Source of the DNA: Candidatus Latescibacterota bacterium
GTDB lineage: Bacteria; Latescibacterota; UBA2968
Direction: 5' to 3'
Length of the DNA stretch: 64,000 bases
Assembly (NCBI GenBank): GCA_965116885.1
Contig: OZ220741.1
Location: 2,464,001-2,528,000, forward strand
Shown: positions 7,387 to 51,969 of the stretch, in pieces
How positions within the stretch are numbered: the first letter of the stretch is position 1
Layout: the number at the start of each line of letters is the position of its first letter
Translations under genes and position numbers: made by a program
The notes under the pieces: model-generated
What the model was told of the DNA's origin: nothing
What the model saw: only the letters and a program-made list of their open reading frames with translations
Databases searched by the model: none

Positions 7387-7986
7387 TTAAATGGGTTCGA
7401 CTTCAACAGTGGTTATGTCGAGTGTTCGCAATACGCGCACCGGCGTTTTGTTCTGGATGGGCAGCCCGTCTTTGCTGCGCGCAGAGATGTAGTTGACAGC
7501 CCCGCTTTCCATTACGCGGATTTGACCAGCGCCATTTTCGGGGATGTCGATATAGACTTCGCCTTCATTGCCGATGCAGGATGATAGGTTTCGGTTATGC
7601 GATTCGGAGAGTTGTTGCACTTTGTAGAAGAAGTACGCAACCAGGACCATCCCCGCGCCGCCCCATACGAGGCCGCGTAGAACCGACTCTTCGATTGAGA
7701 GGCCCAGGTCGAGGTAGAGTGCGCCTGCCCATCCAAAGAGCATGCCAAAGGCGATCACAGAGCGCAGTGAGAGCAGTTGAAAGGTTGCGACACCGTGATC
7801 ATAAGGACTATTATCGACATCTGGTCCTGCATCGTTGGCATTGAAGTCGTCGGCAAGGCCATCTGCGGAATCGCCCAGGCCGATGAGTGTTGTGATAAAT
7901 TGCCAGAGAAACAAAAGGGTGAAGAAGACAGCGCAGCCATAGAATGCCTGATTGAGAGGCGCGAGTTCTGACCACCATGCCTGCAT
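7387..7986 (-). CDS. NfeD-like membrane protein (YqiJ/YuaF-like), flotillin partner
   Basis: TM helices, LLSLRSVIAF, C-terminal OB fold (IGNEGEVYIDIP...GQIRV); GGAGG RBS before MQAWW. Confidence 0.88.
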   Translation of the reverse strand: MQAWWSELAPLNQAFYGCAVFFTLLFLWQFITTLIGLGDSADGLADDFNANDAGPDVDNSPYDHGVATFQLLSLRSVIAFGMLFGWAGALYLDLGLSIEESVLRGLVWGGAGMVLVAYFFYKVQQLSESHNRNLSSCIGNEGEVYIDIPENGAGQIRVMESGAVNYISARSKDGLPIQNKTPVRVLRTLDITTVEVEPI

Positions 7987-8121
7987 AATTAACCTCCAGA
8001 AATCGATTGCGCGTTTTATCAACTACTTTGGGCAGAGAAGTAGGAAACTGCGACGCGTGAACCTGTTATTCCTAAATTTGTCCATGAGAGAGGCGAAAAG
8101 CAAGGGTTATTTCTTATCCGG

Positions 8122-8712
8122 TCATCCGGGTTGTAAACCGAGTTTGCGAAATTCGCTTTTGAGTTGGCGACGGGCGCGGCACAGCCATGTTTTGACGGTT
8201 CCAAGTGGAACGCGAAGCGCCTGTGTGATTTCTTCGTAAGACCAGTCCATGACGTAGCGCAACCACATGGCTTTGCGATAGCGTTCGGGTAAGTTTTGAA
8301 TGCTTTTGTGGACCAATTGTATGCGTTCGCGTTTTTCGACTATTTGGTCTGGTAGCGCGCCGGGTATGAGGTCGCGGATGACGTTGCGAACGACTTCGGG
8401 GTCTTCGGTTTGATAGACCCAGTTTTGCCGAACTTGTTGCGAGCGCAGGTGCGAGCGATAGACGTTGAGGGCAATTTGCGTGAGCCAGGTCGAAAATGCT
8501 GCCTGGCCTTTGAATGTGTGAAGCGAGCGATAGGCGCGGAAAAATGTGTCTTGCATCAGGTCGTCAATGGTATCGCGGTCCGAAATGCGCTGTGCGAGGG
8601 TGCCGTAGATCTGGTTCTGGTATTTGTGGTAGAGTTTTTCAAAGGCTCGGCTGTCGCCCGAGAGGGATGCGCGAATCAGATTTTGATCCTGTGTTTTCAC
8701 TTTTTTCTCCAT
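8122..8712 (-). CDS. ECF sigma-70 factor (SigW/RpoE-like)
   Basis: GDSRAFEKLY, DLMQDTFFRAY, AFSTWLTQIALN, SYEEI..LGTVKTWLCRAR. Confidence 0.93.
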   Translation of the reverse strand: MEKKVKTQDQNLIRASLSGDSRAFEKLYHKYQNQIYGTLAQRISDRDTIDDLMQDTFFRAYRSLHTFKGQAAFSTWLTQIALNVYRSHLRSQQVRQNWVYQTEDPEVVRNVIRDLIPGALPDQIVEKRERIQLVHKSIQNLPERYRKAMWLRYVMDWSYEEITQALRVPLGTVKTWLCRARRQLKSEFRKLGLQPG

Positions 8713-8770
8713 TCGTTAAGATAATTCGTTTATTACTATTCTCTTGTTTGTAACAAGACGGATTTTTCCG

Positions 8771-8941
8771 TCAGTCTCTTTTGATCAAGCGATAACCGAT
8801 CATAATACATATAACGGCGATGGCGAGTTTGAGCAGGAGAAAGAGTAGCCCAAATAGAGAGCCGATGAGCGGGAAGAGAACCTGGATGGCGATAATGCCA
8901 CCGATGATGATGAGTACGATGCCGATGAGTTTTGCCAACAT
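8771..8941 (-). CDS. 56-aa two-TM small membrane protein (absent from ORF track)
   Basis: Hand translation MLAKLIGIVLIIIGGIIAIQVLFPLIGSLFGLLFLLLKLAIAVICIMIGYRLIKRD*; AAAGGA RBS; fills the operon gap. Confidence 0.8.
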   Translation of the reverse strand: MLAKLIGIVLIIIGGIIAIQVLFPLIGSLFGLLFLLLKLAIAVICIMIGYRLIKRD

Positions 8942-8972
8942 GAGGTGTCCTTTTTATTTGTGAGGTTGTCCG

Positions 8973-9332
8973 TCATTCCGAGATGGTTTGCGGAGGTGAA
9001 AGTGACTTAACGGGCGAGCGGCTTTCGAGACGCTCGAGTTTGTCGTCGTTGGTGATGACGATATCTTGAAGGTCGATGAGGCGTTTTTCAAGTTCTTTCA
9101 CGCGTTTTGATAGTTTTTCAGACAGGTTGTTGTTTTTTGTCGATTTGTTTCTTTTTTTATTTTCTGACTCAAATGCGAATACGAGGGCGACAATGGTAAT
9201 GATAGCCATGGCAACCCAGGCCGCCGCCAGGATGAGGCCACCTCCAAATGTTGGGTTTTCAATATAGGCAATTGTACCGCCTGCAAGAATAATTAGACTG
9301 ATACCAACCGTGAGTGAGAGAAAGATGCGCAT
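8973..9332 (-). CDS. PspB-like membrane protein with cytoplasmic coiled coil (paralogue 3)
   Basis: Two TM segments plus RVKELEKRLIDLQDIVITNDDKL; GGGAGG RBS. Confidence 0.7.
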   Translation of the reverse strand: MRIFLSLTVGISLIILAGGTIAYIENPTFGGGLILAAAWVAMAIITIVALVFAFESENKKRNKSTKNNNLSEKLSKRVKELEKRLIDLQDIVITNDDKLERLESRSPVKSLSPPQTISE

Positions 9333-9355
9333 GGTGCCCTCCCTGTTAGTTTAAG

Positions 9356-9589
9356 TTAGCGAGAAATAGGCGATCGCTCGAATTTTTCGTCAATGGTGAT
9401 GAGGATGTCCTGAATGTCCGTGAGTCTGCGGTCGAGTTCGTCCATTCTCTCATTCAAGCGTTTTTCCGCATCGCTGGGGATAGATCCTTTTGTGCGGCGG
9501 TCAATGTATTTGTGTACTGCTGATGCAATGGCTCCTACAATGATGATCAGCAATATGCCACCCATAGTGACACCAATAACATTAGTCAT
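9356..9589 (-). CDS. PspB-like single-TM coiled-coil protein (paralogue 2)
   Basis: TM plus RMDELDRRLTDIQDILITIDEK; AGGAGG RBS. Confidence 0.72.
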   Translation of the reverse strand: MTNVIGVTMGGILLIIIVGAIASAVHKYIDRRTKGSIPSDAEKRLNERMDELDRRLTDIQDILITIDEKFERSPISR

Positions 9590-9600
9590 GTTACCCCTCC

Positions 9601-9801
9601 TTATTTTCTGCTGAGTTTTTCGTCAATGGTGATCATGACGTCCTGAATGTCTGTGAGCCTGCGGTCGAGTTCGTCCATTCGTTCATTCAAGCGTTCTTCT
9701 GCATCGCTGGGGATTGAGCCTTTGGTGCGGCGATCGACGTATTTGTGTACCGCTGATGCGAGAATGATTATCGCTACCATGATTCCAATTTCAAACATCA
9801 T
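9601..9801 (-). CDS. PspB-like single-TM coiled-coil protein (paralogue 1)
   Basis: TM plus RMDELDRRLTDIQDVMITIDEK; near-duplicate of 9356..9589; GGGAGG RBS. Confidence 0.72.
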   Translation of the reverse strand: MMFEIGIMVAIIILASAVHKYVDRRTKGSIPSDAEERLNERMDELDRRLTDIQDVMITIDEKLSRK

Positions 9802-9822
9802 TTGTTTGCCCTCCCATACACA

Positions 9823-10494
9823 TTAGAGTTCATCCACGGGTCTCGCGCGGTGTTTTTCATCCCAGTGTTCGATTTCCGGAAAATGGTAAACGACGAGTCC
9901 CGAATCTGAGATTCGCATTTCCGCATGACCACTTATGGTTAATTCTCGCAGGATTTCTTCGGTTTTTTCAACTGTTATTCTGGTGTCCATAGCAGTTTCT
10001 GTCACGGTGAGGCTGCCCCCTTTATCCCGGGCGAGACGGAGTATGCGGTGCTGGTTTTTGGCATGTGCTTTTTTGTCTCCCGATCTTTTGACCTTGCGAC
10101 CTGCCCACCATATAATCTGAGAGATGATGATTAGCACGAGGCCGCCACTGAGTTCTTCGTGCATGAATGGGTTTGTGCCATCGACCCAGGGAGGATATTG
10201 TATCACTACCATGAGTACGAGCATGAGGCCGCTAAATCCCATAAGTGCAGCCATTCCTATTAAACCATAAGCGAAGAGATAACGCATGGCACAACTCCCA
10301 TCGGTGGCGAGGTCAGAGAGGCGGTCGGGCACGCGCTTGAATGAATTGGTTGCACTTTGGAAATCACTGCTCGCAGTGTGAACGCGCGCCTCCCAGTTTC
10401 CCCTCCATTTCTTTTTTATTTTTCGCTCCGCATCGTTGACCGCGCGGTCAATTTTGCTGGCGATTTCATCGGCGAGTTTTTCCAGGTCACGCAT
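9823..10494 (-). CDS. Membrane protein: N-terminal coiled coil, 2 TM, C-terminal winged-helix-like domain
   Basis: Overlaps pspA stop; C-terminal ILRLARDKGGSLTVTE..TEEILREL..GHAEMRISDSGLVVYHFP. Confidence 0.75.
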   Translation of the reverse strand: MRDLEKLADEIASKIDRAVNDAERKIKKKWRGNWEARVHTASSDFQSATNSFKRVPDRLSDLATDGSCAMRYLFAYGLIGMAALMGFSGLMLVLMVVIQYPPWVDGTNPFMHEELSGGLVLIIISQIIWWAGRKVKRSGDKKAHAKNQHRILRLARDKGGSLTVTETAMDTRITVEKTEEILRELTISGHAEMRISDSGLVVYHFPEIEHWDEKHRARPVDEL

Positions 10495-11164
10495 CTTTTT
10501 GTCCCATTTTCTTTTTTAGTGCACTGAGTTCGTCTTCTACTGTGCTTTTGCGCTCGAGTTTGGAGAATTCTTCTTCCAGAGAGGGGTCAGCACTCGCCAT
10601 TTCTTGATGGGCTTCGGCTTCGGCTTCTTCGGTTTCGATGCGCTGGCGGAATCGTTCAAAGCTCGAAAATGCGTCTTCACCCACTCCCGAGAGGCCCCTG
10701 GCGATTTGCTTGCGGGCTTCGGCTGCACGACGTCGGGCAATTAGAGTGCCCTGGCGGGTGCGGGCTTCGTCGAGTTTGGCTTTGAGTTGGGTGAGTTGTT
10801 GTTTGAGTTGGGACGAGGTTTTACGGCTTTCTTCGAGGGCGACTTCGAGGTCGTGTGTGGCTTCCTGATTTGCAGCTTTGCGTTCGAGGGCGCGGCGGGC
10901 AAGGTCGTCTTCGCCGGCTTCAACGGCTAATTCGGCTTTTTTTTGCCAGGCTTCTATTTGATCTTGTTTTTCGAGATATTGTCTTTCCAGGCGTTTTTCG
11001 TTGGCTACAGCCGTGCCAACCGAAGCAGTGGCTTTATTGACGGCTTCTTCCATTTCCAGAATCATCTGGCGGATCATTTTTTCCGGGTCTTCTGCGCGGG
11101 TAATCAGGTCGTTGACGTTGGCTTTGACGATGTCGGCCATTCTGTAAAAAATTCCGCGTGCCAT
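10487..11164 (-). CDS. pspA: PspA/IM30 (bacterial ESCRT-III) family protein
   Basis: GIFYRMADIVKANVNDLITRAEDPEKMIRQMILEM, GEDDLARRALERK, SLEEEFSKLE, VEDELSALKKKM. Confidence 0.96.
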   Translation of the reverse strand: MARGIFYRMADIVKANVNDLITRAEDPEKMIRQMILEMEEAVNKATASVGTAVANEKRLERQYLEKQDQIEAWQKKAELAVEAGEDDLARRALERKAANQEATHDLEVALEESRKTSSQLKQQLTQLKAKLDEARTRQGTLIARRRAAEARKQIARGLSGVGEDAFSSFERFRQRIETEEAEAEAHQEMASADPSLEEEFSKLERKSTVEDELSALKKKMGQKDA

Positions 11165-15154: not shown

Positions 15155-16273
15155 TTATTTGAGGTTTTCGGGGTTTAGTCCTTTGAGGTCCTCTACGACA
15201 AAACGCCCGTTTTTGCGAATGCACTCGTCGTCGAAGTAGATTTTTCCACCGCCGTATTCGGGGGTTTGGATGAAGACCATGTCCCAGTGTACGGCAGAGC
15301 GGTTGCCGTTGTCGGCGTCATCGGGATAGGCATTTCCGGGTGTAAAGTGGAATGATCCCGATATTTTTTCGTCGAAGAGAATATCGAGCATAGGCGATGT
15401 GATGTAGGGGTTGAATGCGATGGCAAATTCGCCAATATAACGCGCGCCTTCATCGGTGTTGAGAATGTCGTTGAGTTTGGCAGTATTGTTCGAGGTCGCG
15501 TCGATGATTTTGCCCGCTTGAAAGGTCAGTTTGATATCTGAGAATGTCGTACCGCGATAGATGGTGGGGACGTTGAAATGGATGTGACCGTTTACAGAGT
15601 CTTTAACCGGCGCGGTGAAACACTCGCCATCGGGGATGTTGCGAAGTCCCGTACACGGTCTGACGGGTATGTCTTTGATGCTAAAGGATAGATCGGTATC
15701 GATTCCTGTGATGCGTACGCGGTCGGTTTGTTCCATGCGTTTTTTAAGGGGGGCGACCGCTTCGGCCATTTTGCCATAGTCGAGCGTGCAGACGTCAAAA
15801 TAAAAATCTTCAAATGCTTCAGTACTTTGTTGCGCCTGTTGTGCCATAGAAGGCGTGGGCCATCGCAAGACCACCCATTTTGTGTGCGGTACGCGGATGG
15901 CAAAGTGCACGGGTTTGAGCCAGTGTTTTTCGTAGATATCCATCGCGGTGCTGGATACATCTGATAATTCTGAGATGTTGCGGCTGCCGCGCAGACCGAT
16001 GTAGGCCTGTACGCGCTTCATTCGGTAGGCTTCATAATCGCCTGCTTGTTGCATGGTGGCGATATCGCCTGCATGGATGAGTTCGCGTTGGATGCGATTG
16101 TTTTTTATGGATATTAGGGGAATACCGCCAACTTCGCGCACTTTGCGAATGAGTGCAATGATCATGTCTTCGGGCATGTCATAGCCTTGGATGAGGACGG
16201 TTTCGCCCGCTTGTAATTTTGTGGAATGGCGAATTAGGACATCGGCGAGTTTTTCAAGGCGAGGGTCTTGCAT
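15155..16273 (-). CDS. Aminopeptidase M29 (AmpS/AmpT family)
   Basis: MQDPRLEKLADVL after GAGGAGA RBS; NIPDGECFTAP, GEFAI, LFDEKI, SAVHWDMV. Confidence 0.92.
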   Translation of the reverse strand: MQDPRLEKLADVLIRHSTKLQAGETVLIQGYDMPEDMIIALIRKVREVGGIPLISIKNNRIQRELIHAGDIATMQQAGDYEAYRMKRVQAYIGLRGSRNISELSDVSSTAMDIYEKHWLKPVHFAIRVPHTKWVVLRWPTPSMAQQAQQSTEAFEDFYFDVCTLDYGKMAEAVAPLKKRMEQTDRVRITGIDTDLSFSIKDIPVRPCTGLRNIPDGECFTAPVKDSVNGHIHFNVPTIYRGTTFSDIKLTFQAGKIIDATSNNTAKLNDILNTDEGARYIGEFAIAFNPYITSPMLDILFDEKISGSFHFTPGNAYPDDADNGNRSAVHWDMVFIQTPEYGGGKIYFDDECIRKNGRFVVEDLKGLNPENLK

Positions 16274-16366
16274 GAGGTCTCCTCGGGATGATTGCGGTTG
16301 ATGTTGATATAAAAATAACATATGATGTGTTTGTAAGCCATTATTAAAATACAACAGGTAGATCAC

Positions 16367-17140
16367 ATGAAATTCAGACCGTGTATTGATTTGAAAGATG
16401 GCCGGGTTGTTCAAATCGTGGGGGGTACGTTGCGCGATGGGGATGTCCAGCGCGCGGTGACCAATTTTGAGACCGAGCGTTCTCCTGCGGATTATGCCCG
16501 GCTGTATCGCGAGGACGGATTTTGGGGCGGCCATGTGATTGCGCTTGGGCCGGGCAATGAAGCGGCGGCGTTGGAGGCTCTGGCGGCGTTTCCCGGGGGT
16601 CTGCATCTGGGTGGGGGTATCACGCCGCACAATGCGGAAAAATTTTTGCGCGCGGGCGCGAGCCATGTGATTGTGACGTCTTATGTTTTCCGCGATGGGC
16701 AAATCGATATGACGCGATTGGATGAGATGATACGGGCTGTGGGTAGGGAGCGTTTGGTTCTGGATTTGAGTTGTCGAAAGCGCGGTGATGATTATGTTGT
16801 TGTAACGGATCGCTGGCAAAGATTTACGGATGTGACTGTCGGCGAGGAGATATTGGGCGCGTTGGCCGGTTATTGTGCTGAGTTTTTGGTGCACGGGGTT
16901 GATGTAGAGGGCAAACGCGCAGGTGTAGAAGAACCTCTGGTGGAAATGCTGGGCAGGTGGTCACCCGTGCCGGTAACTTATGCAGGTGGGGTGCGAGAGC
17001 TATCGGATTTGCACCGCGTCAATGTGCTGGGTCAGGGACGGGTGGATCTGACTATTGGCAGTGCGCTGGATATTTTTGGGGGCGATGTGGCATATCGAGA
17101 TGTTGTAGCCTGGATGAGAAGTGTGAAGGAAGAAGTGTGA
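16367..17140 (+). CDS. hisA: ProFAR isomerase, eukaryotic (His6)-type HisA
   Basis: FRPCIDL..G.V.QIVGGTL, GGHVIALG, LVLDLSCR, EFLVHGVDVEG, DLTIGSALDIFGG. Confidence 0.9.
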   Translation: MKFRPCIDLKDGRVVQIVGGTLRDGDVQRAVTNFETERSPADYARLYREDGFWGGHVIALGPGNEAAALEALAAFPGGLHLGGGITPHNAEKFLRAGASHVIVTSYVFRDGQIDMTRLDEMIRAVGRERLVLDLSCRKRGDDYVVVTDRWQRFTDVTVGEEILGALAGYCAEFLVHGVDVEGKRAGVEEPLVEMLGRWSPVPVTYAGGVRELSDLHRVNVLGQGRVDLTIGSALDIFGGDVAYRDVVAWMRSVKEEV

Positions 17141-18672: not shown

Positions 18673-19950
18673 TCAGGCCAGTCCTGCACGACGAAGGGCG
18701 TCGGCCATGGCATTGTCGCTTTGAGACTCTTGCGTTTGCTTGGATTTGAATGCGGCCATGTCCTCAATTTCGGCCGTTTGTCTATCTTGTTCTTCAATGG
18801 CGCGCATCGAAAGTGAGATGCGTTTTTTATCCGAATCGATTTCGCGGATCAAGGCTTTGACTTTTTGACCACTCGAAACGACTTCGTTGGGGTTTGAGAT
18901 GCGTTTCCCCGAAACGAACTGCGAGATGTGGATCAGCCCCTCAATACCGGGTTCAATTTCGACAAAGGCACCAAAATTTTGGATTGAAACGACTTTGCCG
19001 GTGATGATGCTGCCCGATTGGTAGCGCTCTGCTACCGTATCCCAGGGATCTTTTTCCAGTGCTTTGATGGAGAGCGATATGCGCTCATTTTTTTTTCCCA
19101 GATTTTTGAGGCCGATTATTTTGACGCGCACTTCTTCGCCTTTTTTTAAGACACTGCGCGGATTTTCTACGCGGGTGTGGCTGATTTCCGAGACGTGTAC
19201 CAGGCCTTCAACGCCTCCGAGGTCAACAAAAGAGCCGAAGCGTTCTATGCGTGTAATGGTTCCCGTTCTTTCTTCACCTTCCGAGAGTTGCTGGCGCATC
19301 TCGTCGGCTTTTTTGCGGTTTTCTTCTTCCAGATAAGCGCGGCGTGAAACGACGACATTGTTGCGTCCCCGCAGTTCAACAATTTTGAAGTTGTGGGTTT
19401 GGCCTGCATACGAAGCCGGGTCGTCGCAATATCCCGTGTCGATTTGCGACATGGGGCAGAATGCGCGAAGGCCGCCGATATTTACCACAAGGCCTCCGGT
19501 GTTGAAGCCAGTGACTTTGCCGGCGATGGGCATGTCGTTTTGATGTGCTTGACGCAGGAGTTGACGGCTGGAAACGCGCAGCGAAAATGCCAGGCGTATT
19601 TCGCCATCGGTGTTGGCGACGAAGGCTTCGATGGTATCGCCAGTTTTATATTTTAATTCGCCCGATTCGTCGCGCAGTTCTTGAATGTCTATTGATCCTT
19701 CACTGCGTCCTCCAAAGTCGATAAATGCTGTGGAGTCACCGATTTCGCGGATGGTTCCGGTGATTTTATCGCCAGTAGAGACTTCGCGGTAATTTTGCTT
19801 ATCGCTTTCTTCGAGCAGTGTGGCAAATTCGGTATCAGGTGTGTCTTCAGCGTATTTTTTGTCGAGTTCTTCGACAGTGGGCGCGTCGTCTGAAGGGGCA
19901 TTGGCTGGTGTATCGCCAGCCGTTTCGCGTGTTGTTTCGGGGGTGCTCAT
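18673..19950 (-). CDS. S1 RNA-binding protein (four S1 domains, short RpsA-like)
   Basis: AFIDFGGRSEG, RAFCPMSQID, FGSFVDLGGVEGLVHVSEIS, FGAFVEIEPGIEGLIHIS; tail NAMADALRRA. Confidence 0.88.
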   Translation of the reverse strand: MSTPETTRETAGDTPANAPSDDAPTVEELDKKYAEDTPDTEFATLLEESDKQNYREVSTGDKITGTIREIGDSTAFIDFGGRSEGSIDIQELRDESGELKYKTGDTIEAFVANTDGEIRLAFSLRVSSRQLLRQAHQNDMPIAGKVTGFNTGGLVVNIGGLRAFCPMSQIDTGYCDDPASYAGQTHNFKIVELRGRNNVVVSRRAYLEEENRKKADEMRQQLSEGEERTGTITRIERFGSFVDLGGVEGLVHVSEISHTRVENPRSVLKKGEEVRVKIIGLKNLGKKNERISLSIKALEKDPWDTVAERYQSGSIITGKVVSIQNFGAFVEIEPGIEGLIHISQFVSGKRISNPNEVVSSGQKVKALIREIDSDKKRISLSMRAIEEQDRQTAEIEDMAAFKSKQTQESQSDNAMADALRRAGLA

Positions 19951-20148
19951 AGTTTGTGACCTGTGGAATTGTTTTTGAGGGACGGGGGTTATTAGGCAGA
20001 ACAAATAATCTATAAAGGATACTGAAAATAAGCAACCAAATTTTCCTCCTCAGGCGGGCGTTTAAATTCACCCCGGTCTTATATCTGCCTTAAAAAAGTG
20101 ACATTTTGATCTGTGTGATGTGTTAAAAAATAAAGCGATGGATTGTTT

Positions 20149-20616
20149 ATGAATGTCGAATTGTTATATCAAAAATACGGTCCCATGGTGTTGCGGCGAT
20201 GCCGGCGGTTGTTGCGAGATGAAGATTGCGCCATGGATGCGATGCAGGATGTGTTTGTGCGGGTATTGCAACGCGGAGATCGTTTGAAAGCGATCTATCC
20301 GTCGAGTTTGCTGTATCGCATTGCGACCAATGTGTGTTTGAATCGCATTCGTGACCAGCGGCTCGATCTGCCGGGCGATGAGGTGTTGATGCATATTGCG
20401 GGGATGGAAGATCCAGAACCTCGATTGGATGCCCGGGCGATGCTGGACCGGCTTTTTGCGCGACATAGAGATTCGACGCGAACAATTGCGGTTTTGCATT
20501 TTGTGGATGGGTTAACATTGGCGGAAGTTGCTCAAGAAGTGGGGATGTCGGTTTCTGGGGTGCGAAAGCGGTTGCGGGGGTTGCGAGAATCGCTGGAGAA
20601 GTTGGAGGAGCTATGA
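20149..20616 (+). CDS. ECF sigma-70 factor
   Basis: LYQKYGPMVLRRCRRLL, DAMQDVF, LYRIATNVCLN, GLTLAEVAQEVGMS. Confidence 0.92.
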   Translation: MNVELLYQKYGPMVLRRCRRLLRDEDCAMDAMQDVFVRVLQRGDRLKAIYPSSLLYRIATNVCLNRIRDQRLDLPGDEVLMHIAGMEDPEPRLDARAMLDRLFARHRDSTRTIAVLHFVDGLTLAEVAQEVGMSVSGVRKRLRGLRESLEKLEEL

Positions 20617-21371
20617 CGAGACAATGCGGTGATTGGGAACTGGAGCGTTTTCGACTGGGTGAATTGCCAGAAGAAGAAATGGAAGCTATTCAAAGGGCGC
20701 TGGATGCGGATCCAGATTTGAGGACGCGTTTGGAGGCATTGGAAGGGTCAGATCGGGAAATTCACATGTCCTATCCGGCTGATTGGGTGGCGCAGCAGGT
20801 GGCGCGGCGTTTGCAGAGACGAGAGGTGCCGAGTATATCGCGGTTCGATCCGCGTTTTGCATTGGTCGCTGTGATTTTGCTGGCCGCTGTTTTTGCGATC
20901 TATTTGCCGGGGCCTGAAGTGCCGCCGACCTGGGATCGAAAAGGTGTGGATGGCATTCGGTTAAAAGGCGTAAAGCCGGATTTGTTGTTGTATCGAAAAA
21001 GGGCGTCTGAGGTTGAACAATTGGCGGATAGCAGTGTGGCTTATGCGGGTGATTTAATTCAGATTTTTTATCGCGCAGCGGGCAAGCCTTTTGGGGTGAT
21101 TGTGTCTGTGGATGGGCGCGGTACTGTGACGCGGCATTTGCCCGCTTCGGGAACAAGTGCCGTGCGGTTGATACAGGGCGATCCCGTGCCGCTGGATTAT
21201 TCTTATGAACTGGATGATGCCCCGAAGTGGGAACGGTTTTATTTTTTGACAGCAGATGCGTCTTTTGATGTGCGCGATGTGACACAAGCGGCAAAGGAAG
21301 GGCTCGATTCATTGCGGGTGGGAAGAGAATTTGAGCAGTTTGCCATTACGCTTTACAAAGGGGGCAGGTGA
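20613..21371 (+). CDS. Single-TM anti-sigma factor with extracytoplasmic DUF4384-like domain
   Basis: ATGA overlap with sigma; LERFRLGELP anti-sigma-type N-terminus, TM, RLKG, GDLIQIFY, VSVDGRG, YELDDAP. Confidence 0.8.
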   Translation: MTRQCGDWELERFRLGELPEEEMEAIQRALDADPDLRTRLEALEGSDREIHMSYPADWVAQQVARRLQRREVPSISRFDPRFALVAVILLAAVFAIYLPGPEVPPTWDRKGVDGIRLKGVKPDLLLYRKRASEVEQLADSSVAYAGDLIQIFYRAAGKPFGVIVSVDGRGTVTRHLPASGTSAVRLIQGDPVPLDYSYELDDAPKWERFYFLTADASFDVRDVTQAAKEGLDSLRVGREFEQFAITLYKGGR

Positions 21372-22933
21372 TGTTGCGCCGATGGACAGTACTGTTGGGG
21401 ATCGGTCTGCTGTTATGTGCTCAGGGAATTGAGGCATCACAAGTTGTGCGGCGTTTTGTGTTGGCGGCTGGTGCAAATTTTGGTGGGGAGAAACGCACGC
21501 CTCTGCGTTATGCCGTATCGGATGCAAAACATTTTGCTCGTGTTTTAAAGATGATGGGTGGGGTTGAATCTGAGGATCAATTTTTGTTGGCCGAGCCGAG
21601 TTTGGAAAATTTTAAACGGGTTTTGGTGGATTTGCAAACCCGGGTCATAAAAGCATCCCAATCGTCGAGTCGCATCGAAGTTGTCCTGTATTATTCCGGG
21701 CATGCCGATGAAAATGGGTTGCTGTTGGGAGAAGATCGGTTGACCTATCGCGCTTTGCGAGATGCAATGAATAGCGTTCAGGCGGATGTGCATATTACTG
21801 TGCTCGATGCGTGTGCTTCGGGTGCTATTACGCGCCTGAAAGGCGGGCAAAGGCAAAAAGCCTTTATGGTCGATACGTCGTCGGATATGCGGGGGTATGC
21901 GTTTTTGACTTCGAGTTCCGAAAATGAGGCTGCACAAGAATCGGATCGCATTCGCGGGTCGTTTTTCACGCATTATCTGGTGTCTGGCTTGCGGGGGGCA
22001 GCAGATGTGACTGGTGATGGTAAGGTGACACTCAGCGAAGCGTATGCGTTTGCATTTCGCAATACGCTGAAGCGAACGGAAAAAACTCAGGGAGGGGCAC
22101 AGCATCCGGCTTATGATATTAAGATGACGGGTACAGGTGATGTGGTGATGACCGATGTGCGAGAGACGTCGGCGAGTTTGATTTTGTCAGATGAGTTGAA
22201 TGGCCGATTTTTTGTGCGTAATTCGCAGGAGCAACTGGTGGCAGAGTTGGACAAGTCCGCCGGGCAAACGCTCGAGTTGGGATTAGAACCCGAGGTTTAT
22301 GACGTTCATTTTGAACAGCGAACGCAATTGTTGCATTCAAAGGTCGCTTTAAAAAGGGGTGAGCGGTTTTTGCTTGAGAATCGGCATTTTCGCTCTCAAG
22401 TGCGCGAAAAAACCACGAGCCGAGGGCCTGCGTTGAGGAAGCCAGCGACCGGGACATCTGCCCGCTATCCACACAGACTATCCGGCAGATGGCGTCTTGA
22501 ACGCAGTAGGGGTGCCTGGCAACTGGGGGATGATAGCAAAGCCTGGATTTTTGGATTCTGGCCCACGGAACATGTTTCGATCAACTATTCTCGTTCGGGA
22601 TTTTCGGTTGCTGACGATACAAAAACGGGTGTGTCATCGGAACTGGTCAGTCTGCGTATTTATATGCCTTTGAATATGTGGCGTTCACCTTTGCGCCCTT
22701 ATGCCGAAGGAGGCGTCGGTCGATACACGGGTAAAGTATTGGATGAGAATGTCGATGAAGTGAATGGGTTGTATTGGGGTGGTGGACTGGATGTGCCGTT
22801 TATGAAGTTTTTTGTTCTGGGTGGACGCATAGGCTATAACCGGTTTGTCGAGCCTTTTGCTGTGCCGGTGGATGGGCAAACGGATTATAGTGGAATGGAG
22901 TACAGCGTGGGGTTGGGGTTGTTGTTATTCTGA
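21368..22933 (+). CDS. Exported caspase-family (C14) protease with C-terminal outer-membrane beta-barrel
   Basis: Signal peptide; LRYAVSDA, YYSGHA (His), LDACASG (Cys), GSFFTHYL; amphipathic strands ending ...GLGLLLF. Confidence 0.85.
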   Translation: MMLRRWTVLLGIGLLLCAQGIEASQVVRRFVLAAGANFGGEKRTPLRYAVSDAKHFARVLKMMGGVESEDQFLLAEPSLENFKRVLVDLQTRVIKASQSSSRIEVVLYYSGHADENGLLLGEDRLTYRALRDAMNSVQADVHITVLDACASGAITRLKGGQRQKAFMVDTSSDMRGYAFLTSSSENEAAQESDRIRGSFFTHYLVSGLRGAADVTGDGKVTLSEAYAFAFRNTLKRTEKTQGGAQHPAYDIKMTGTGDVVMTDVRETSASLILSDELNGRFFVRNSQEQLVAELDKSAGQTLELGLEPEVYDVHFEQRTQLLHSKVALKRGERFLLENRHFRSQVREKTTSRGPALRKPATGTSARYPHRLSGRWRLERSRGAWQLGDDSKAWIFGFWPTEHVSINYSRSGFSVADDTKTGVSSELVSLRIYMPLNMWRSPLRPYAEGGVGRYTGKVLDENVDEVNGLYWGGGLDVPFMKFFVLGGRIGYNRFVEPFAVPVDGQTDYSGMEYSVGLGLLLF

Positions 22934-22945
22934 TTGGAGGGGAAT

Positions 22946-24625
22946 ATGTGCCGAATGATTTTGTACGCGATTGTCATTTGTTTTTTCATTTCTGAAATTG
23001 CGAATGCACAAGAAGATATGTCCAGTCATTTGGGTTATGTAGAGGTTGAATCACTGGATGTGTTCGAGGCCAGGAATGTCACTGTGGATGTGTCTATTGG
23101 ACAGTTGATGTTGAAGCAGGTCGCTGAAAAGGTCAGGAGTAAAAATGAAAAAGTCTGCGAAGCCTTATCAGATCTGAAGCTGGTGCGCGTGCATACTCTG
23201 TCGGTTGGTGAGATTGCAATGCGTATGGACAAAATTGTGCGATATTTAGATGCGATGGGTTGGGAGATAACCGTTCAGTCGTGGAAGAAACACGAGCGCG
23301 TATCGATATATTTCCAGAAGGAAGCGGATGATATTATTGGCCTGTTTGCAATGGTCCATGATCGCAAGGCTGGCACTTTAACGCTGGTCAATGTGGTTGG
23401 CGTTATTCAAGTTGATGAAATGGGAACTGTTGGTCGAGAATTAGAGGTGGAGGCGTTTGGTCGCATTGCTCGTTTATTGCCCGGATATAAACCGCCTGTC
23501 TCCCACATAGCACACCACCGCCTGGGTTCCTGGAAGGCGCATATTCCCCCATTTTCGAATATTTGGCGCGTTGATCACGAAGATTTTTTGGTGCGTTACA
23601 ATCGCGTGGATGGCGTTTTTATTGGCTGGCGCTTGCCATTGAAATATCGCTCCTCGCGCGGGGTGGCACACTATGGCGAAGTGGGGTATGGGTTTGGGAG
23701 TGATCGATGGGATTATCAGGCGGGTGCGGAGTTTTTTTCTTTTTCTGGTGCGTCAAAGGACAACATCGCTGGGCTGGGTTTTGAACTTCACGGGTTGACA
23801 AATACGCAAGATAATTGGCGAATTGATGAGATAGAAAATTCGATTTTTGCCTTTTTGTTGCGGCGCGATTTTAGAGACTATTATCGTCGGGAGGGTGCCA
23901 GTACTTATATTTTTCGGGATTTTGACCGGATGGTAGAGGTTCGGGCACAAGTGGGTGTAGATGTTTTTGAATCGATGCCCAATAGCATTTCCTGGAATCT
24001 ATTTGGCGATCGATGGGGCAGTCGAATGAATTTTCGGCCCAATCCAGAGATTGAGGCCGGGCAAATGCGGGGTGTAATGGGTACACTACAGTTAGATAGT
24101 CGTGCGAGCCGAAGGTCTCGACAGGGATGGCGTTTAATGGCACAGGCTGAGAAGGCAGGTGGTATTTTGGGTGGCGATTTTGATTTTGAACGCTATATCC
24201 TGGATGTGCGCCGCTATCAGTATGCGGGACGTGGAACCCAATTGAATTTGCGCGTTCGCGCGGGTACCGGACGAGGACATGTGCCCGTGCAATTTCTCTA
24301 TCGTCTCGGGGGTCCTTCTTCGCTTAGGGGTTATGGATTGAATGCTTATGAGGGAGATCGCATGGTGTTGTTTAATGCGATTTATTGGGTTGATGGCGAA
24401 GCGCATTTTAGGGATGATTGGCCTCTGGATGATGTTGGCATCGGTGTGTTTTTTGATGCGGGTAAGGCGTGGTTTTCAGATTGGGAGCCTGTTGGTACAC
24501 GGGTTGTGACGAGCGCGGGGTTTGGATTAAAGACCGATAATTTGCGCGTGTTTTTTGCCCGTCCGCTGGATGCGAATGATCCGGTTGATTGGCGGGTTTG
24601 GGTACGGTTTCGGCGGGCTTTTTAG
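22946..24625 (+). CDS. DUF4252-like domain fused to Omp85/BamA-like beta-barrel
   Basis: Signal peptide; LKLVRV..GWE..TLVNVVG; RYNRVDG, LGGPSSLRGY, FFDAGKAW; C-terminal Phe. Confidence 0.72.
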   Translation: MCRMILYAIVICFFISEIANAQEDMSSHLGYVEVESLDVFEARNVTVDVSIGQLMLKQVAEKVRSKNEKVCEALSDLKLVRVHTLSVGEIAMRMDKIVRYLDAMGWEITVQSWKKHERVSIYFQKEADDIIGLFAMVHDRKAGTLTLVNVVGVIQVDEMGTVGRELEVEAFGRIARLLPGYKPPVSHIAHHRLGSWKAHIPPFSNIWRVDHEDFLVRYNRVDGVFIGWRLPLKYRSSRGVAHYGEVGYGFGSDRWDYQAGAEFFSFSGASKDNIAGLGFELHGLTNTQDNWRIDEIENSIFAFLLRRDFRDYYRREGASTYIFRDFDRMVEVRAQVGVDVFESMPNSISWNLFGDRWGSRMNFRPNPEIEAGQMRGVMGTLQLDSRASRRSRQGWRLMAQAEKAGGILGGDFDFERYILDVRRYQYAGRGTQLNLRVRAGTGRGHVPVQFLYRLGGPSSLRGYGLNAYEGDRMVLFNAIYWVDGEAHFRDDWPLDDVGIGVFFDAGKAWFSDWEPVGTRVVTSAGFGLKTDNLRVFFARPLDANDPVDWRVWVRFRRAF

Positions 24626-24669
24626 ATTATAGCACCAATGATGAGAGAAGTCCAAAGGAGGAAGACGCA

Positions 24670-24887
24670 ATGTTTGGTCGCGTTTTGGCTCTTATGATGG
24701 TACTCAGATTGCGTTTGTTTCTGAGCGTGGAGATAATGATGTGATCTATGTGATGAATGCCGATGGCAGCAATCCTATCCAATTGACGCAGAATTATCGC
24801 GATATTGACTATCTCGCCTGGTCCTCTGATGGCTCTGAGATTATCATTTTTTTAGATCGCGATGATGATGACTATGATGACGATTGA
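24670..24887 (+). pseudogene. Remnant of TolB/PD40 beta-propeller gene
   Basis: GGAGG RBS + ATG (MFGRVL...) out of frame with YDGTQIAFVSERGDNDVIYVMNADGSNPIQLT..LAWSSDGSEII*. Confidence 0.7.
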
Positions 24888-25132
24888 TGCCTCATTGGTG
24901 GATACCGGCCAAAGTAAGGTATGAGATGTAGGGGCGCGCTTTTGGAAAGTGGAACGGATCGCATTTTTGAGACAGCGATTGAGATTTTGGTAAAAAAATG
25001 AAAGGAGGAATCAGCTCTCTCTGAAATTCTTCTTCATTCTCGTTGCATCCGCAGTTAAATGTTATTACAATTTGTTGAATTTTCAGATCGTTAAAATATT
25101 TTACTGCACCGCGACAAGAGGGGAAGGAAAAC

Positions 25133-25555
25133 ATGTCACAAAATAATTCTGCTATTGCACCAGAACTCGTCAACCAATTTGTCCAGGATGCCCACGGTGA
25201 CTTCGACAGTGTAAAAAAGCTGCTTGAGAAAGAACCGGCACTCGTCAATTCTTCCTGGGATTGGGGCGGCGGCGACTGGGAAACAGGACTGGGCGCGGCA
25301 GCACACATGGGTCGCAAGGACATTGCCGAGTTTTTGCTGAACAAGGGCGTGCGTATCGATTTGTTTGCGGCGGCCATGCTGGGCAAGCTCGAAATCGTAC
25401 AGGCGGTGGTGAACGACAATCCAGCGGTTGTAAATGAAAAGGGACCACACGGGATCCCGCTGATGATCCATGCCAAAAAGGGAGGCAAGGAAGCCGCAGA
25501 AGTTGTGAAGTTTCTGCAGTCTGTTGGCAATTCGGTCAAGAAAATGAATCGTTAA
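25133..25555 (+). CDS. Small ankyrin-repeat protein
   Basis: AHGDFDSVKKLLE, DWETGLGAAAHMGRKDIAEFLL, AAAMLGKLEIV, GPHGIPL. Confidence 0.85.
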   Translation: MSQNNSAIAPELVNQFVQDAHGDFDSVKKLLEKEPALVNSSWDWGGGDWETGLGAAAHMGRKDIAEFLLNKGVRIDLFAAAMLGKLEIVQAVVNDNPAVVNEKGPHGIPLMIHAKKGGKEAAEVVKFLQSVGNSVKKMNR

Positions 25556-33323: not shown

Positions 33324-34982
33324 TTATGCGTTGTGCCATGCGTCTTCCCAGGGTGTACCTTCGAGCGATTCTGCGGCGATATCCTGGGGATCGCGTTTGA
33401 GCACTTGTTCTTTATATTTTTTGATGCTCAATTTGTCGGGTGATAAGGAGGTTTCTTTGCTGATGGCGCGGGTAAAGGCTTCGGCAAAGGTTTCGATGCT
33501 GTCTTTTTCATCATCGGGCAAGCGTTTGGGCCAGGGGCCGTCGTTGAGGATGACCGTGCGGCATTCTTCTTCTGTGGGAATGCGGGCTGGACCGGGATAC
33601 GAGCGCAGCCTGTCGCTGTCAAGCGGATCACTCAGGCCGTGTTGTCGTTCCCAGGCGGTGATTTGATTGCGAAATTTTGATGCCAGTGCGGGGTGTTCGG
33701 CGATGAGGTTGTGCTGTTCGTGTGGATCGTTTTCAAGGTCGTAGAGTTCTTCGATTCCGCCGTGGGCAAAGAAGGCGTATTTGTGTTTCTGGTTGCGCGC
33801 TGAAATCCAGCGTCTTTTGCCCTTGCTGTAGTCTATAATCGCGGATTCTCGAGGCAGGGACAGGCCTCCACCTGTTGCGCCCAGGAGATTTGCCCCCGGC
33901 AATGGACCGCGTTCTTCTGGATACTGGAGGTCGAGTTCTTCAATGAGGGTGGGAAAGAAGTCGAGCAGGCTGACGAGGTCATCGCATTGTTGTCCTGCTC
34001 GCGTTTTGCCGGGCCAGCGGAGGAGATATGGAATGCGCACGGAGGATTCATAAGGGCAGTTTTTTTGCGAAAGGCCGTGTTCGCCCATCATTTCACCGTG
34101 GTCTGAGACAAAGAGGATGACAGTGTTATCGGATAGGCCGAGGGTTTCGAGTTCATTCAAAATGCGACCGATGCCGTCGTCAACATGGGAGATGAGGCCA
34201 TAGTAGAGGGCGCGCAGGCGGCGCAGGCGGTCGGGGTCGCGGTGAGCACCGTCCAGACGTCCTCGGCTGCCGTAAAAATTGGGGGGCAGGGTTTCGATAG
34301 GGCGGTCGGCAAAGGATGGGAGGGGCATATCGGCGGGGTCGTACATGTCGTCGTACGGTTCGCAGGGTGCAAAGGGCGGATGCGGCGATATCCAGGAACT
34401 CCACAGGAAAAAGGGTTGATTGGTGCGGTAGCGCGTGTGTTCGCGGAGAAAGTCAATGGACCGGTCGGCGACCCAGGTATTTTTGTGGTGTTCAACGGGT
34501 ATGCCGCAGGTTTGGGGCTGGAAGAAGAGCAGATCGCGGATGCCTTTGGGAAAACGGGTGCGGACGCCGTTTTCTCGCAGATAGCGGAGGTAGTCGTCAT
34601 CGACCCGGTGATCGATGCATTCTTCCATTGTGAGGAGATTTCGGAAGCCGTAGTGCCGACCGCGAAAGTGCATCTTTCCAATGCCCTGCGTCCAGTACCC
34701 GGCGCGCAGAAGAAGCGTCATGATGGTGGGGAGTTCGGGTAAGGGCCCAGGTAGCGCGCTGTTGTCTGTCCAGTGGTGTCGGGACATTCTGTGACCGGTG
34801 ATAAAACTCATGCGCGCGGCAACGCAGACGGGAGTAGGTGTGACTGCCTGCGCAAAGCGAATACCTGAACTGGCGAGTGCATCGAGGTTGGGCGTGCGGA
34901 TTGTTGTATTTCCAGCGCAGCCCATGGCATCTGCGCGCTGCTGGTCGGTCATGAGGACGAGAATATTGGGGCGATCTGGCAT
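33324..34982 (-). CDS. Cys-type sulfatase
   Basis: PNILVLMTDQQR, TPNLD, CVAAR, GKMH, SDHGE. Confidence 0.92.
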   Translation of the reverse strand: MPDRPNILVLMTDQQRADAMGCAGNTTIRTPNLDALASSGIRFAQAVTPTPVCVAARMSFITGHRMSRHHWTDNSALPGPLPELPTIMTLLLRAGYWTQGIGKMHFRGRHYGFRNLLTMEECIDHRVDDDYLRYLRENGVRTRFPKGIRDLLFFQPQTCGIPVEHHKNTWVADRSIDFLREHTRYRTNQPFFLWSSWISPHPPFAPCEPYDDMYDPADMPLPSFADRPIETLPPNFYGSRGRLDGAHRDPDRLRRLRALYYGLISHVDDGIGRILNELETLGLSDNTVILFVSDHGEMMGEHGLSQKNCPYESSVRIPYLLRWPGKTRAGQQCDDLVSLLDFFPTLIEELDLQYPEERGPLPGANLLGATGGGLSLPRESAIIDYSKGKRRWISARNQKHKYAFFAHGGIEELYDLENDPHEQHNLIAEHPALASKFRNQITAWERQHGLSDPLDSDRLRSYPGPARIPTEEECRTVILNDGPWPKRLPDDEKDSIETFAEAFTRAISKETSLSPDKLSIKKYKEQVLKRDPQDIAAESLEGTPWEDAWHNA

Positions 34983-43785: not shown

Positions 43786-44925
43786 GTGAAGATTCGAGCG
43801 ATTTCGATTTCGATTTTTGAGTTGCCTGCCAATACGGGTCGGTTTCGGATGGAACAAACCGGTCAGGGTGCCCGCAAGCGATGGGCAAAGCGGGGTACGG
43901 GTAAGTCGGCAGAGCATATACACGTTTTGCATGTGAAGACCGACGAAGACATCGAAGGGGTGTGTACGGTAGGGGATGCGCGGTACACGACGATGCGTTC
44001 TGAAGATCTGGAGCAATTGCGGTTGCTGGCGATTGGCGAAGATCCATTTGATCGCGAGCGGCTCGCTCAAAAATTACACAAAGCAACGCGCGGCATGTTC
44101 ACGCGCCCTGGATGGTTTGGTGCTTTTGACAATTGTTTGTGGGATATTGCCGGCAAGGTTGCGGAGCTGCCTGTTCACAGTTTGATTGGTCGGGCGCGGT
44201 CTTGTTGTGCGGCTTATTACAATTTTAGAAGTGGGTCACAAGAGGAGGCTGTAGCCGATGCAAAAAAGGCAGTGGATATGGGATTTTTGGCTGTAAAGGA
44301 TCACTTTGGGGGTACGGCAGATGAAAATATCGCGTGTTTTCACGCTGTGCGCGATGCGGTTGGAGATGATGTCGATATTTTGCACGATGCCGCAGGATGT
44401 GATTATACGTTGCAAGATGCGATTCGGGTGGGTAAGACTCTGGAGGCGTTGCGGTTTGGTTGGTTTGAAGAGCCTTTGGCAGATCGAGATCAAAAGAGCT
44501 TGCAGCGTTTGTGCGATGCGCTGGATATTCCCATTTTGGCTCCTGAGACTTTGATGCACGATGTGGATTTGAGCGCGCAATGGATTATTTCTGGGGCAAC
44601 CGATGCCCTGCGCGCCAATGCGCGGCTGGGGACAACTCCGACGTTGAAGTTGGCACATTTGGTGGAGATGCACGGTGCAAATATTGAATTTAATGGACCG
44701 GGTGGGTTGTTTGGGCTGGTGCATGCACATCTGGTTTGTGCCATATCGAATACGAGTTATTACGAGTTTTTCCCCGGGGGATCCCGGGATGTGCGCGGTC
44801 GGGAGATTGGGTTGCTCAATCCACCATTGCCCGAGAATGGCCATATTACACCGCCCAATGATCCCGGATGGGGTGCCGAATGGGATTGGGAATTTTTTGA
44901 GAAGAAGCGGATTGGAGAGTTGTAA
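43786..44925 (+). CDS. Mandelate racemase/enolase-superfamily enzyme
   Basis: DNCLWDIAGK, VKDH, LHDA, WFEEP, APE. Confidence 0.85.
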   Translation: MKIRAISISIFELPANTGRFRMEQTGQGARKRWAKRGTGKSAEHIHVLHVKTDEDIEGVCTVGDARYTTMRSEDLEQLRLLAIGEDPFDRERLAQKLHKATRGMFTRPGWFGAFDNCLWDIAGKVAELPVHSLIGRARSCCAAYYNFRSGSQEEAVADAKKAVDMGFLAVKDHFGGTADENIACFHAVRDAVGDDVDILHDAAGCDYTLQDAIRVGKTLEALRFGWFEEPLADRDQKSLQRLCDALDIPILAPETLMHDVDLSAQWIISGATDALRANARLGTTPTLKLAHLVEMHGANIEFNGPGGLFGLVHAHLVCAISNTSYYEFFPGGSRDVRGREIGLLNPPLPENGHITPPNDPGWGAEWDWEFFEKKRIGEL

Positions 44926-44950
44926 AAAGCGACAACTGAAAGGAGATTTT

Positions 44951-51968: not shown

Positions 51969-51969
51969 G

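Follow-up and report, generated by a model that had tools for sequence, protein, structure and literature searches.

How is the extracytoplasmic function (ECF) sigma factor that is encoded beside a secreted caspase in a Latescibacterota genome held and released? The locus lies in a 64,000-nucleotide stretch of DNA from Candidatus Latescibacterota bacterium (assembly GCA_965116885.1, contig OZ220741.1, positions 2,464,001 to 2,528,000), here called the window, and encodes an ECF sigma factor, a putative anti-sigma factor, a caspase-fold protease and a fourth, outer-membrane-type protein. To our knowledge, the mode of activation of most ECF sigma factors has not been worked out, and few site-1 proteases are known. 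A first-pass annotation made from the sequence alone had proposed that the caspase acts as a periplasmic site-1 protease on the anti-sigma factor. We tentatively retain that proposal. The catalytic dyad and the triad of genes are conserved, and an R-x-K-G motif that is almost invariant in the anti-sigma factor is echoed in a loop of the caspase; the cleavage itself is what we infer.

Four closely packed genes on the + strand make up one operon (20149-24625):

20149..20616, + strand: sigma gene, encoding an ECF (group 4) sigma-70 factor of 155 residues; alternative TTG start at 20143

20613..21371, + strand: anti-sigma gene, encoding a predicted single-pass protein of 252 residues; ATGA overlap onto the sigma gene

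21368..22933, + strand: caspase gene, encoding a predicted secreted caspase-fold protease of 521 residues; GTGA overlap with the anti-sigma gene

22946..24625, + strand: fourth gene, encoding a DUF4252 N-terminal domain and an Omp85-superfamily barrel; alternative TTG start at 22934

The first-pass annotation had described three translationally coupled genes, and both the ATGA and the GTGA overlap are present in the sequence, as are all of the sequence features that it listed. Its operon of three genes stands as far as the triad is concerned and falls short in the gene count, as a fourth co-directional gene adjoins the caspase stop. The caspase could alternatively start at the ATG at 21371, from which close relatives are annotated, and the overlap would then be a single nucleotide.

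The arrangement was compared across related loci, which are the best 80 of 371 encoding stretches from a genome scan, kept as 75 loci. In the record titles, the loci are assigned to Latescibacterota, Gemmatimonadota, Acidobacteriota/Vicinamibacteria, Fibrobacterota, Eisenbacteria and one Planctomycetota, and two carry odd bin labels ('cyanobacterium' and 'Bifidobacteriaceae'). The sigma, anti-sigma and caspase genes are adjacent and co-directional in 65 of the 75, spanning at least five phyla, and because so many related loci share this arrangement it exceeds chance. Three further loci have the sigma and anti-sigma genes upstream of a caspase that runs off the contig (L020, L026 and L038), and four have adjacent anti-sigma and caspase genes with the sigma gene cut off or not detected (L005, L015, L062 and L074). 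Adjacency is broken by a 230-nucleotide gap in L008 and by two genes between anti-sigma and caspase in L019 (2858-4944), one encoding a 378-residue protein without a Pfam match and the other a 183-residue OMP_b-brl protein, and L063 holds an orphan caspase. The anti-sigma stop and the caspase start overlap by 4 nucleotides in 59 of 69 loci, and the genes flanking the triad are not conserved across loci. These comparisons support the triad as a conserved functional unit.

The product of the first gene is matched by Sigma70_r2 (53.4 bits, cut-off 24), Sigma70_r4_2 (27.3, cut-off 25.7) and TIGR02937 (66.7, cut-off 42.9), and none of the named ECF subgroup models reaches its cut-off on this protein. 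The second gene product is a predicted single-pass anti-sigma factor, an assignment made because of its anatomy in an AlphaFold2 model and its position directly after the sigma gene. The model, based on a 33-sequence alignment, has a mean predicted local distance difference test (pLDDT) value of 86.7 and is divided as follows:

residues 7-70, 20631-20822, + strand: four N-terminal helices, predicted cytoplasmic

residues 80-97, 20850-20903, + strand: predicted transmembrane helix

residues 101-117, + strand: disordered linker, pLDDT below 50

residues 121-249, 20973-21359, + strand: predicted periplasmic beta-sandwich of about 130 residues, confident in the model

The NCBIfam anti-sigmaE model PRK13920 matches residues 12-83 with an E value of 1.1e-6, a sub-threshold match at 28.5 against a cut-off of 225, and Pfam has no match to the window protein even at E 10. 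The zinc-binding anti-sigma (ZAS) domain is recognized by the motif H-x3-C-x2-C; this is absent from residues 1-80, which contain one Cys (C5) and one His (H51). A fold search of the PDB with the model gave no matches at E up to 1e-3, just generic immunoglobulin-like sandwiches. DUF4384 (PF14326) weakly matches 12 of 33 relatives (E up to 1; best 2.7e-4) and is absent for the window protein, and an equally weak lead comes from one atlas cluster (score 0.82) that has DUF4384 on 10% of its members. A profile of the C-terminal domain retrieved 4,931 representatives at E up to 1e-3, of which 1,505 remain at E up to 1e-30. Among the 150 representatives listed, lengths are 152-374 residues and the domain is C-terminal, with P0187 (374 residues, domain at residues 57-198) as the sole exception.

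The third gene product is made up of a protease half and a barrel half joined by a flexible segment, with domain boundaries taken from an AlphaFold2 model (pLDDT 79.8, 78 sequences):

residues 1-23, + strand: signal-peptide-like N-terminus (MMLRRWTVLLGIGLLLCAQGIEA/SQ)

residues 27-240, 21446-22087, + strand: caspase domain

His112 (SGHA), 21701..21703, + strand: predicted catalytic His, codon checked

Cys149 (DACAS), 21812..21814, + strand: predicted catalytic Cys, with Asp147 two residues before it, codon checked

residues 260-344, 22145-22399, + strand: beta-sandwich

residues 349-365, 22412-22462, + strand: flexible tether, pLDDT below 50

R352-G353, 22421..22426, + strand: basic-Gly pair of the disordered tether; all 77 sequences have the R and 76 of 77 the G

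residues 375-521, 22490-22930, + strand: 8-stranded barrel

The protease half belongs to Peptidase_C14 (Pfam PF00656, 45.1 bits against a cut-off of 21.4), and a Foldseek search of the PDB matched it to caspase-7, -6 and -3 and to MALT1 with E values of 1e-5 to 1e-6. By sequence, the closest chains of known structure are distant ones (OmpW at 0.004 and metacaspase-1, 7qp0, at E 0.0056), and the best named relative is an 'EACC1-associated' caspase model, whose 61.2 bits fall short of its cut-off of 140. The scoring of 8,000 candidates gave more than 3,472 relatives of the caspase at E up to 1e-3. The signal peptide and the intact His-Cys dyad (SGHA and DACA) read by the first-pass annotation are both borne out: the N-terminus resembles a signal peptide, and H112, C149 and D147 are each present in 79 of 79 family sequences. 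Metacaspases have an acidic S1 pocket to which two Asp residues contribute, one at the second position upstream of the Cys and one in an N-terminal 'xxDA' motif. D52 of the window protein aligns with the INDA Asp of metacaspase-1 (7qp0, E 0.0056), D52-A53 and D147-A-C149 are invariant in the family, and we take D52 and D147 to be the positions that line the basic-P1 pocket. A specificity for Arg or Lys at P1 is thus predicted from the sequence. Orthocaspases are described as cleaving after basic residues (PMC6426788). Because the catalytic dyad and both pocket aspartates are kept in all 79 sequences, catalysis appears to be under selection.

The main new link between the two proteins is a short basic motif that occurs in both:

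R116-L-K118-G119, 20958..20969, + strand: anti-sigma linker/domain junction; candidate site-1 cleavage site

T155-R-L-K-G-G160, 21830..21847, + strand: within a low-confidence caspase loop, 7-11 residues past the Cys; candidate site of autoprocessing, or pseudo-substrate

In the anti-sigma factor, the motif lies about 20 residues outside the transmembrane helix, where the disordered linker joins the folded domain; site-1 cuts that far outside the membrane leave a short stub. Its K and G are found in 74 of 74 anti-sigma sequences from the loci and its R in 71 of 74, with positions 110-115 and 120-123 varying freely. Independent representatives of the anti-sigma family agree, with KG in 148 of 150 and R.KG in 137 of 150, 12 of the remainder being gaps at the alignment edge. 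In the caspase, the motif reads T-R-x-K-G-G; all 79 sequences retain its T, R, K and G160, and 76 of the 79 its G159. It falls within the segment 150-177, right after Cys149, where pLDDT is below 50, and we take the loop after the Cys to be the place where caspases and metacaspases are processed. Among 50 open reading frames counted in the window (19,034 residues), R[ILV]KG occurs just in the anti-sigma factor and in the caspase loop. The first-pass annotation had pointed to three basic-Gly motifs; conservation upholds RLKG (116-119) and the SRG of the caspase (351-353), and DRKG (108-111), present in the window protein, is let go because positions 110-111 are variable. Taken on sequence, the matching motifs suggest that the caspase cuts the anti-sigma factor. 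Two close relatives carry a local duplication of the motif in their anti-sigma factors, R-L-K-G-V-I-K-G-V-K (L004:4579-4620 and L011:4576-4617).

The C-terminal half of the caspase protein is, in the model, a small 8-stranded outer-membrane barrel of the OmpA-TM/OmpX/OmpW/NspA type. Its eight strands have pLDDT values of about 90, the protein ends in ...GLGLLLF with a C-terminal Phe, and Foldseek matched this half to NspA (5e-7), OprF-N (9.7e-7), OmpW and OmpA-TM in the PDB, so that the AlphaFold check of a barrel ending in Phe, as the first-pass annotation had it, came out in its favor. The Pfam family OMP_b-brl scores 19.2-21.8 bits, below its cut-off of 28.7. Barrels with an even number of strands usually have their N-terminal domain in the periplasm, and because of this usual topology the caspase domain should face the periplasm. 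The idea that the barrel senses a surface ligand, also from the first-pass annotation, found no support. The outward-facing loops of the model are short, at 3, 7, 2 and 15 residues, and 15 of 69 relatives have, in place of the barrel, an unrelated region of 320-480 residues that contains G-, Q- and N-rich tandem repeats, each about 20 residues long (L010, L013, L022-L024, L035, L046-L048, L052, L053, L057, L058, L061 and L066). Most of these repeat-type C-termini end in W-P-G-x-x-x-G-x-R-x-G-R. None of six tried had a Pfam match, an hhalign comparison of the repeat type with the barrel type detected no relation (probability 0.2), and the atlas returned just unnamed or 'LA_2272 surface repeat' clusters for the repeat type, with recognition below the mark.

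Upstream of the sigma gene, the alignment of the corresponding regions in close relatives yielded the motif GTRACA-N16-GTGTT, which in the window is:

20098..20124, + strand: candidate ECF-type promoter, GTGACA-N16-GTGTT, ending 25 nucleotides before the sigma ATG

This is the one exact match in the 64-kb window (0.04 expected; 4 of 100 shuffles have a match), and it falls inside the region 20090-20148 that the first-pass annotation had singled out for a reporter with no mention of a motif. The motif is present in 56 of the 75 loci, with one-base variants in most of the others, and in 53 of 71 loci with a sigma match it ends 19-130 nucleotides (median 25) before the estimated sigma start. Such a conserved motif fits an ECF promoter read by the operon's own sigma factor, as ECF sigma factors are presumed to be autoregulated, and the operon is thus likely to control its own expression. 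Allowing one mismatch gave 3 matches in the window against 1.35 expected; both extras are inside genes, so the scan found no regulon member in the 64 kb. A scan of 19900-25200 for sigma-70 promoters and terminators gave nothing exceeding the shuffled expectation and no terminator after the fourth gene. In other loci, extra copies of the motif precede TonB-dependent receptor-like genes (L028:1242-3630 and L063:3227-5682) and a small outer-membrane protein (OMP) barrel gene (L064:89-770), which are possible regulon members. Near some relatives, the TonB-dependent receptor-like genes match CarboxypepD_reg, Plug and barrel models and do not match a signalling-domain model.

In the mechanism that we infer, which extends to autoregulation, P1 specificity, cleavage, the cleavage site, a site-2 protease and a signal, the sigma factor would be held at the inner membrane by the single-pass anti-sigma factor, whose periplasmic part would consist of the linker of about 20 residues and the DUF4384-like beta-sandwich. 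The caspase would be secreted into the periplasm and held at the outer membrane through the 8-stranded barrel that it carries. Upon a signal it would be activated, probably by processing its own T-R-L-K-G-G loop with a cut after K158, and the active enzyme would then cut the anti-sigma factor at R-L-K|G just outside the membrane, after K118. The shortened anti-sigma factor would be removed by a site-2 protease encoded elsewhere, and the freed sigma factor would transcribe its own operon and other genes, including those for outer-membrane proteins in some relatives. Release of the caspase by a cut in its tether at R352-G353 is speculation. No Peptidase_M50 (site-2) gene was found in the 64-kb window, which is neutral for the proposal, and both runs of a complex prediction with caspase residues 25-345 and anti-sigma residues 100-252 scored 0.01, a value that counts neither for nor against it.

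Several observations weigh against the caspase as site-1 protease and keep its probability just short of even. The protease is encoded inside the very operon that its action would induce. The genes of classical site-1 proteases such as DegS, PrsW and Prc lie outside the operon concerned, and MucD, whose gene does lie in the operon, regulates negatively. Some caspase paralogs come with no sigma/anti-sigma pair (the orphan in L063, and a second caspase in 6 of the 75 loci), and therefore the family has other uses or substrates. K118-G119 sits at the edge of the confident fold, the pLDDT being below 50 only up to residue 117, and because of this position its invariance could be structural. The middle residue of the motif is aliphatic in both partners and shows no clear coupling between them (72 pairs, from 71 loci and the window). 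As weak evidence, none of 675 longer candidates (442-2000 residues) carries the anti-sigma C-domain at E up to 1e-3, so no fusion of anti-sigma factor and caspase was seen. Alternatively, the caspase may be an output of the operon or a negative regulator of it: the anti-sigma beta-sandwich would sense envelope stress and the induced, outer-membrane-anchored protease would process other envelope proteins, similar to DegP or MucD in sigmaE and AlgU operons, with R-x-K-G being structural or the site of another protease. A caspase that lies downstream in an autoregulated operon would suit this role, and so would the orphan paralogs, the location of K118-G119 at a folded-domain edge and the recurrence of outer-membrane proteins (Omp85-type in 8 of 75 loci, OMP barrels in L019 and L064, TonB-dependent receptor-like proteins in L028 and L063). 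However, it leaves unexplained why the same invariant R[ILV]KG word is found in both partners and nowhere else in the window reading frames counted, why the anti-sigma domain is of a type otherwise fused to proteases, and why the anti-sigma and caspase genes are so tightly coupled in translation (59 of 69 loci), and we consider it rather unlikely.

It is also conceivable, at a lower probability that we would call slight, that the caspase is a co-receptor bound to the periplasmic domain of the anti-sigma factor. The two would form a trans-envelope bridge like RseB/RseA or FecA/FecR that gates another protease, and any catalysis would be aimed at the caspase itself or at other substrates. With the caspase fixed in the outer membrane and the anti-sigma factor in the inner one, the partners would be well placed for such a bridge, the strict co-occurrence and coupling of the triad agree with it, and the R-L-K-G-G of the caspase could be a pseudo-substrate that mimics the anti-sigma motif. 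A bridge does not account for the retention of the dyad and both pocket aspartates in 79 of 79 sequences, which points to selected catalysis, and pseudo-protease variants, described for orthocaspases (PMC6426788), were not seen in this caspase family. A different and still less probable proposal makes the barrel itself the thing that is monitored, in a self-reporting alarm for envelope assembly. The inserted barrel would keep the caspase away from R-x-K-G, and failed assembly or integrity, or a cut of the tether at R352-G353, would let it reach and cut the anti-sigma factor. Such an alarm would fit the repeated presence of outer-membrane genes in these operons, namely those for Omp85-type proteins, small OMP barrels and TonB-dependent receptor-like proteins; if true, the system would parallel DegS/RseA or RcsF/IgaA in function and be widespread in uncultured phyla of the Fibrobacteres-Chlorobi-Bacteroidetes (FCB) group and acidobacterial phyla. 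That the module serves programmed cell death or anti-phage defence, with the caspase as the killing effector, is very improbable. Caspase-family proteases do act in the cyclic oligonucleotide-based anti-phage signalling system (CBASS) and in type III clustered regularly interspaced short palindromic repeat (CRISPR) systems, some of them coupled to ECF-like sigma factors, and the 'EACC1-associated' model is the best named relative here. Against this stand the lack of any PADLOC hit for all four proteins, flanks made up of ordinary chromosomal genes with no defence genes, and a protease that is predicted to be periplasmic and tethered to the outer membrane rather than cytoplasmic.

The site-1 protease proposal can be set beside known trans-envelope systems. 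In E. coli, the sigmaE-RseA-DegS-RseP pathway removes a single-pass anti-sigma factor by a periplasmic site-1 cut followed by an intramembrane cut and is linked to the status of outer-membrane proteins. DegS is an inner-membrane serine protease encoded elsewhere and activated by the C-termini of outer-membrane proteins, whereas the candidate protease of the window is a cysteine caspase, encoded in the operon and fused to an outer-membrane barrel. FecI-FecR-FecA is a chain across the envelope made of an outer-membrane barrel protein, an inner-membrane anti-sigma factor and an ECF sigma factor. The window operon shares this set of locations, although its outer-membrane partner carries a protease, and the Plug, TonB_dep_Rec and FecR models have no match in the four window proteins, which leaves FecIRA-type signalling without support.

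Published relatives that involve caspase-family proteases are closer. In Myxococcus xanthus, the periplasmic TPR-CHAT domain of DdvA, in the DdvS/DdvA pair, has been proposed to be its own site-1 protease ahead of RseP, with proteolysis by the CHAT domain itself unproven (PMC11506125). As in the window, an ECF sigma factor is held by a single-pass anti-sigma factor, and a periplasmic caspase-family module lies beside a flexible juxtamembrane linker (PMC11506125). The DdvA protease, however, has an incomplete active site, is fused to the anti-sigma factor and acts in trans in a dimer, and DdvA has a zinc-binding anti-sigma domain and a CBASS/CRISPR regulon (PMC11506125). The window protease is instead a separate, outer-membrane-anchored C14-type protein, and its 252-residue anti-sigma partner carries a small beta-sandwich. 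A DdvA-type anti-sigma factor was therefore rejected for the window, since no TPR-CHAT is fused to the anti-sigma factor and the protease is a separate gene. In type III-E craspase, the caspase-like Csx29 (TPR-CHAT) cleaves Csx30, which binds RpoE (PMC10028731; bioRxiv 2022.08.17.504292), and the statement of the first-pass annotation that a caspase-like protease cuts a sigma inhibitor in these systems agrees with these sources. The likeness is that of a caspase-family protease cutting the flexible linker of a sigma-binding inhibitor, as proposed for the window; craspase differs in being cytoplasmic, RNA-guided and associated with Cas7-11 (PMC10028731). The type III-E domains (Cas7-11, Csx29, Csx30/Csx31) and CRISPR genes are absent from the operon and the window, in keeping with the empty PADLOC result. 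DUF4384 is the C-terminal domain of one group of Csx30 proteins (bioRxiv 2022.08.17.504292) and an accessory domain fused to cyanobacterial orthocaspases (PMC7475262), and through the weak matches in 12 of 33 relatives the periplasmic domain of the anti-sigma factor weakly resembles both. CalpL/CalpT/CalpS is a further mechanistic relative, and the close relatives are all either unproven or different in architecture.

The gene configuration itself is already in print, where it was noted and left unexplained. Asplund-Samuelsson et al. 2012 (PMC3501461) reported metacaspase operons with sigma-70 factors in M. xanthus, Anaeromyxobacter, Haliangium, Sorangium, Ralstonia and Fibrobacter, and Table S2 of that paper gives an ECF sigma factor, a hypothetical protein (often with a single transmembrane helix) and a metacaspase, for example in Fibrobacter succinogenes S85 (neighbour of Fisuc_0911) and in Myxococcus xanthus (neighbours of MXAN_4950, MXAN_7215 and MXAN_7455). 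The window operon has the same three gene types in one predicted operon, and on this likeness of gene types the similar triads that the first-pass annotation had placed in myxobacteria are documented (PMC3501461). The 2012 listing gives the configuration alone and does not mention an anti-sigma assignment, mechanism, motif, promoter, barrel tether or Omp85/DUF4252 gene (PMC3501461). The Fibrobacter case is probably of the same family as the window triad, because Fibrobacterota loci with the full triad are among the 75. A re-classification of ECF sigma factors (PMC7826278) does not mention caspase, C14 or CHAT in its main text, nor caspase or Peptidase_C14 in the part of its supplement examined. 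The literature searches turned up no functional characterization of a sigma/anti-sigma/caspase triad. Also not found in print were the assignment of the middle gene product as an anti-sigma factor whose periplasmic domain is DUF4384-like, the tether to the outer membrane, the promoter, the R-x-K-G motif common to the two proteins and the breadth of the family in uncultured phyla.

The fourth protein is a member of the Omp85 superfamily and not BamA. It is matched by DUF4252 (33.6 bits, cut-off 23.9) and Omp85 (41.8, cut-off 24), and a DUF5686-like stretch is below cut-off. BamA or TamA was tried and rejected, with BamA TIGR03303 at 17.3 against 297, Omp85_fam at 25.3 against 200, and no POTRA domain detected in the protein. 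Its start is more likely the ATG at 22946, preceded by GGAGG, than the TTG at 22934 directly after the caspase stop. DUF4252 is the typical neighbour of ECF120 sigma/anti-sigma pairs in Bacteroidota, and the most conserved one according to the supplement of PMC7826278. The ECF120 arrangement, with PG0985 of P. gingivalis as an example, resembles that of the window in that the gene for a DUF4252 protein comes shortly after the pair. In ECF120 this protein stands alone at position +2 or +3 (PMC7826278), whereas in the window DUF4252 is fused to an Omp85-type barrel and follows the caspase. The fourth gene is limited to the window's clade, where the eight loci that have it are found. In six of those (L001-L004, L006 and L007, at about 8230-10120) the Omp85-type gene is followed by a second caspase paralog, about 48% identical and with acidic insertions in a barrel loop, which the window lacks. 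L009, L011 and L012 (5001-6800) have a nearly identical sigma/anti-sigma pair followed directly by that paralog, and because the pair adjoins the paralog instead, the anti-sigma factor can apparently pair with either caspase type.

Outside the operon, the window holds ordinary chromosomal genes, among them those for sulfatases, ExbB/ExbD/TonB, a sigma-54 two-component pair, PspA and a second ECF sigma factor, and the nearest public records are Latescibacterota chromosomes assembled from metagenomes, in which the caspase protein is 94-97% identical. The second ECF sigma gene (8122-8712, - strand) has a 211-residue protein without a Pfam match downstream (7387-8022) and two unassigned open reading frames and a PspA/IM30 gene (10487-11164) upstream; the region 7387-11164 may be another envelope-stress unit. 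The longest open reading frame for an M29 peptidase (15155-16894, - strand) overlaps a His_biosynth gene (16367-17140, + strand) by about 530 nucleotides, and because the M29 match begins only at residue 210, the peptidase gene probably starts further in. The window contains five sulfatase genes (33324-34982, 44675-46195 and 50595-55679) and one more adjoins the triad in locus L010, which suggests a lifestyle that includes the degradation of sulfated glycans.

The family is large and is found mostly in phyla with few cultured members, and operons with the same gene types have been tabulated for two species that can be cultured, Fibrobacter succinogenes and Myxococcus xanthus. The matching motifs predict exact cuts, after K118 of the anti-sigma factor and after K158 of the caspase. 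If the site-1 protease proposal is true, a separate periplasmic caspase that releases a sigma factor would be a new class of site-1 protease, and bacterial C14 caspases would gain a defined function other than death.

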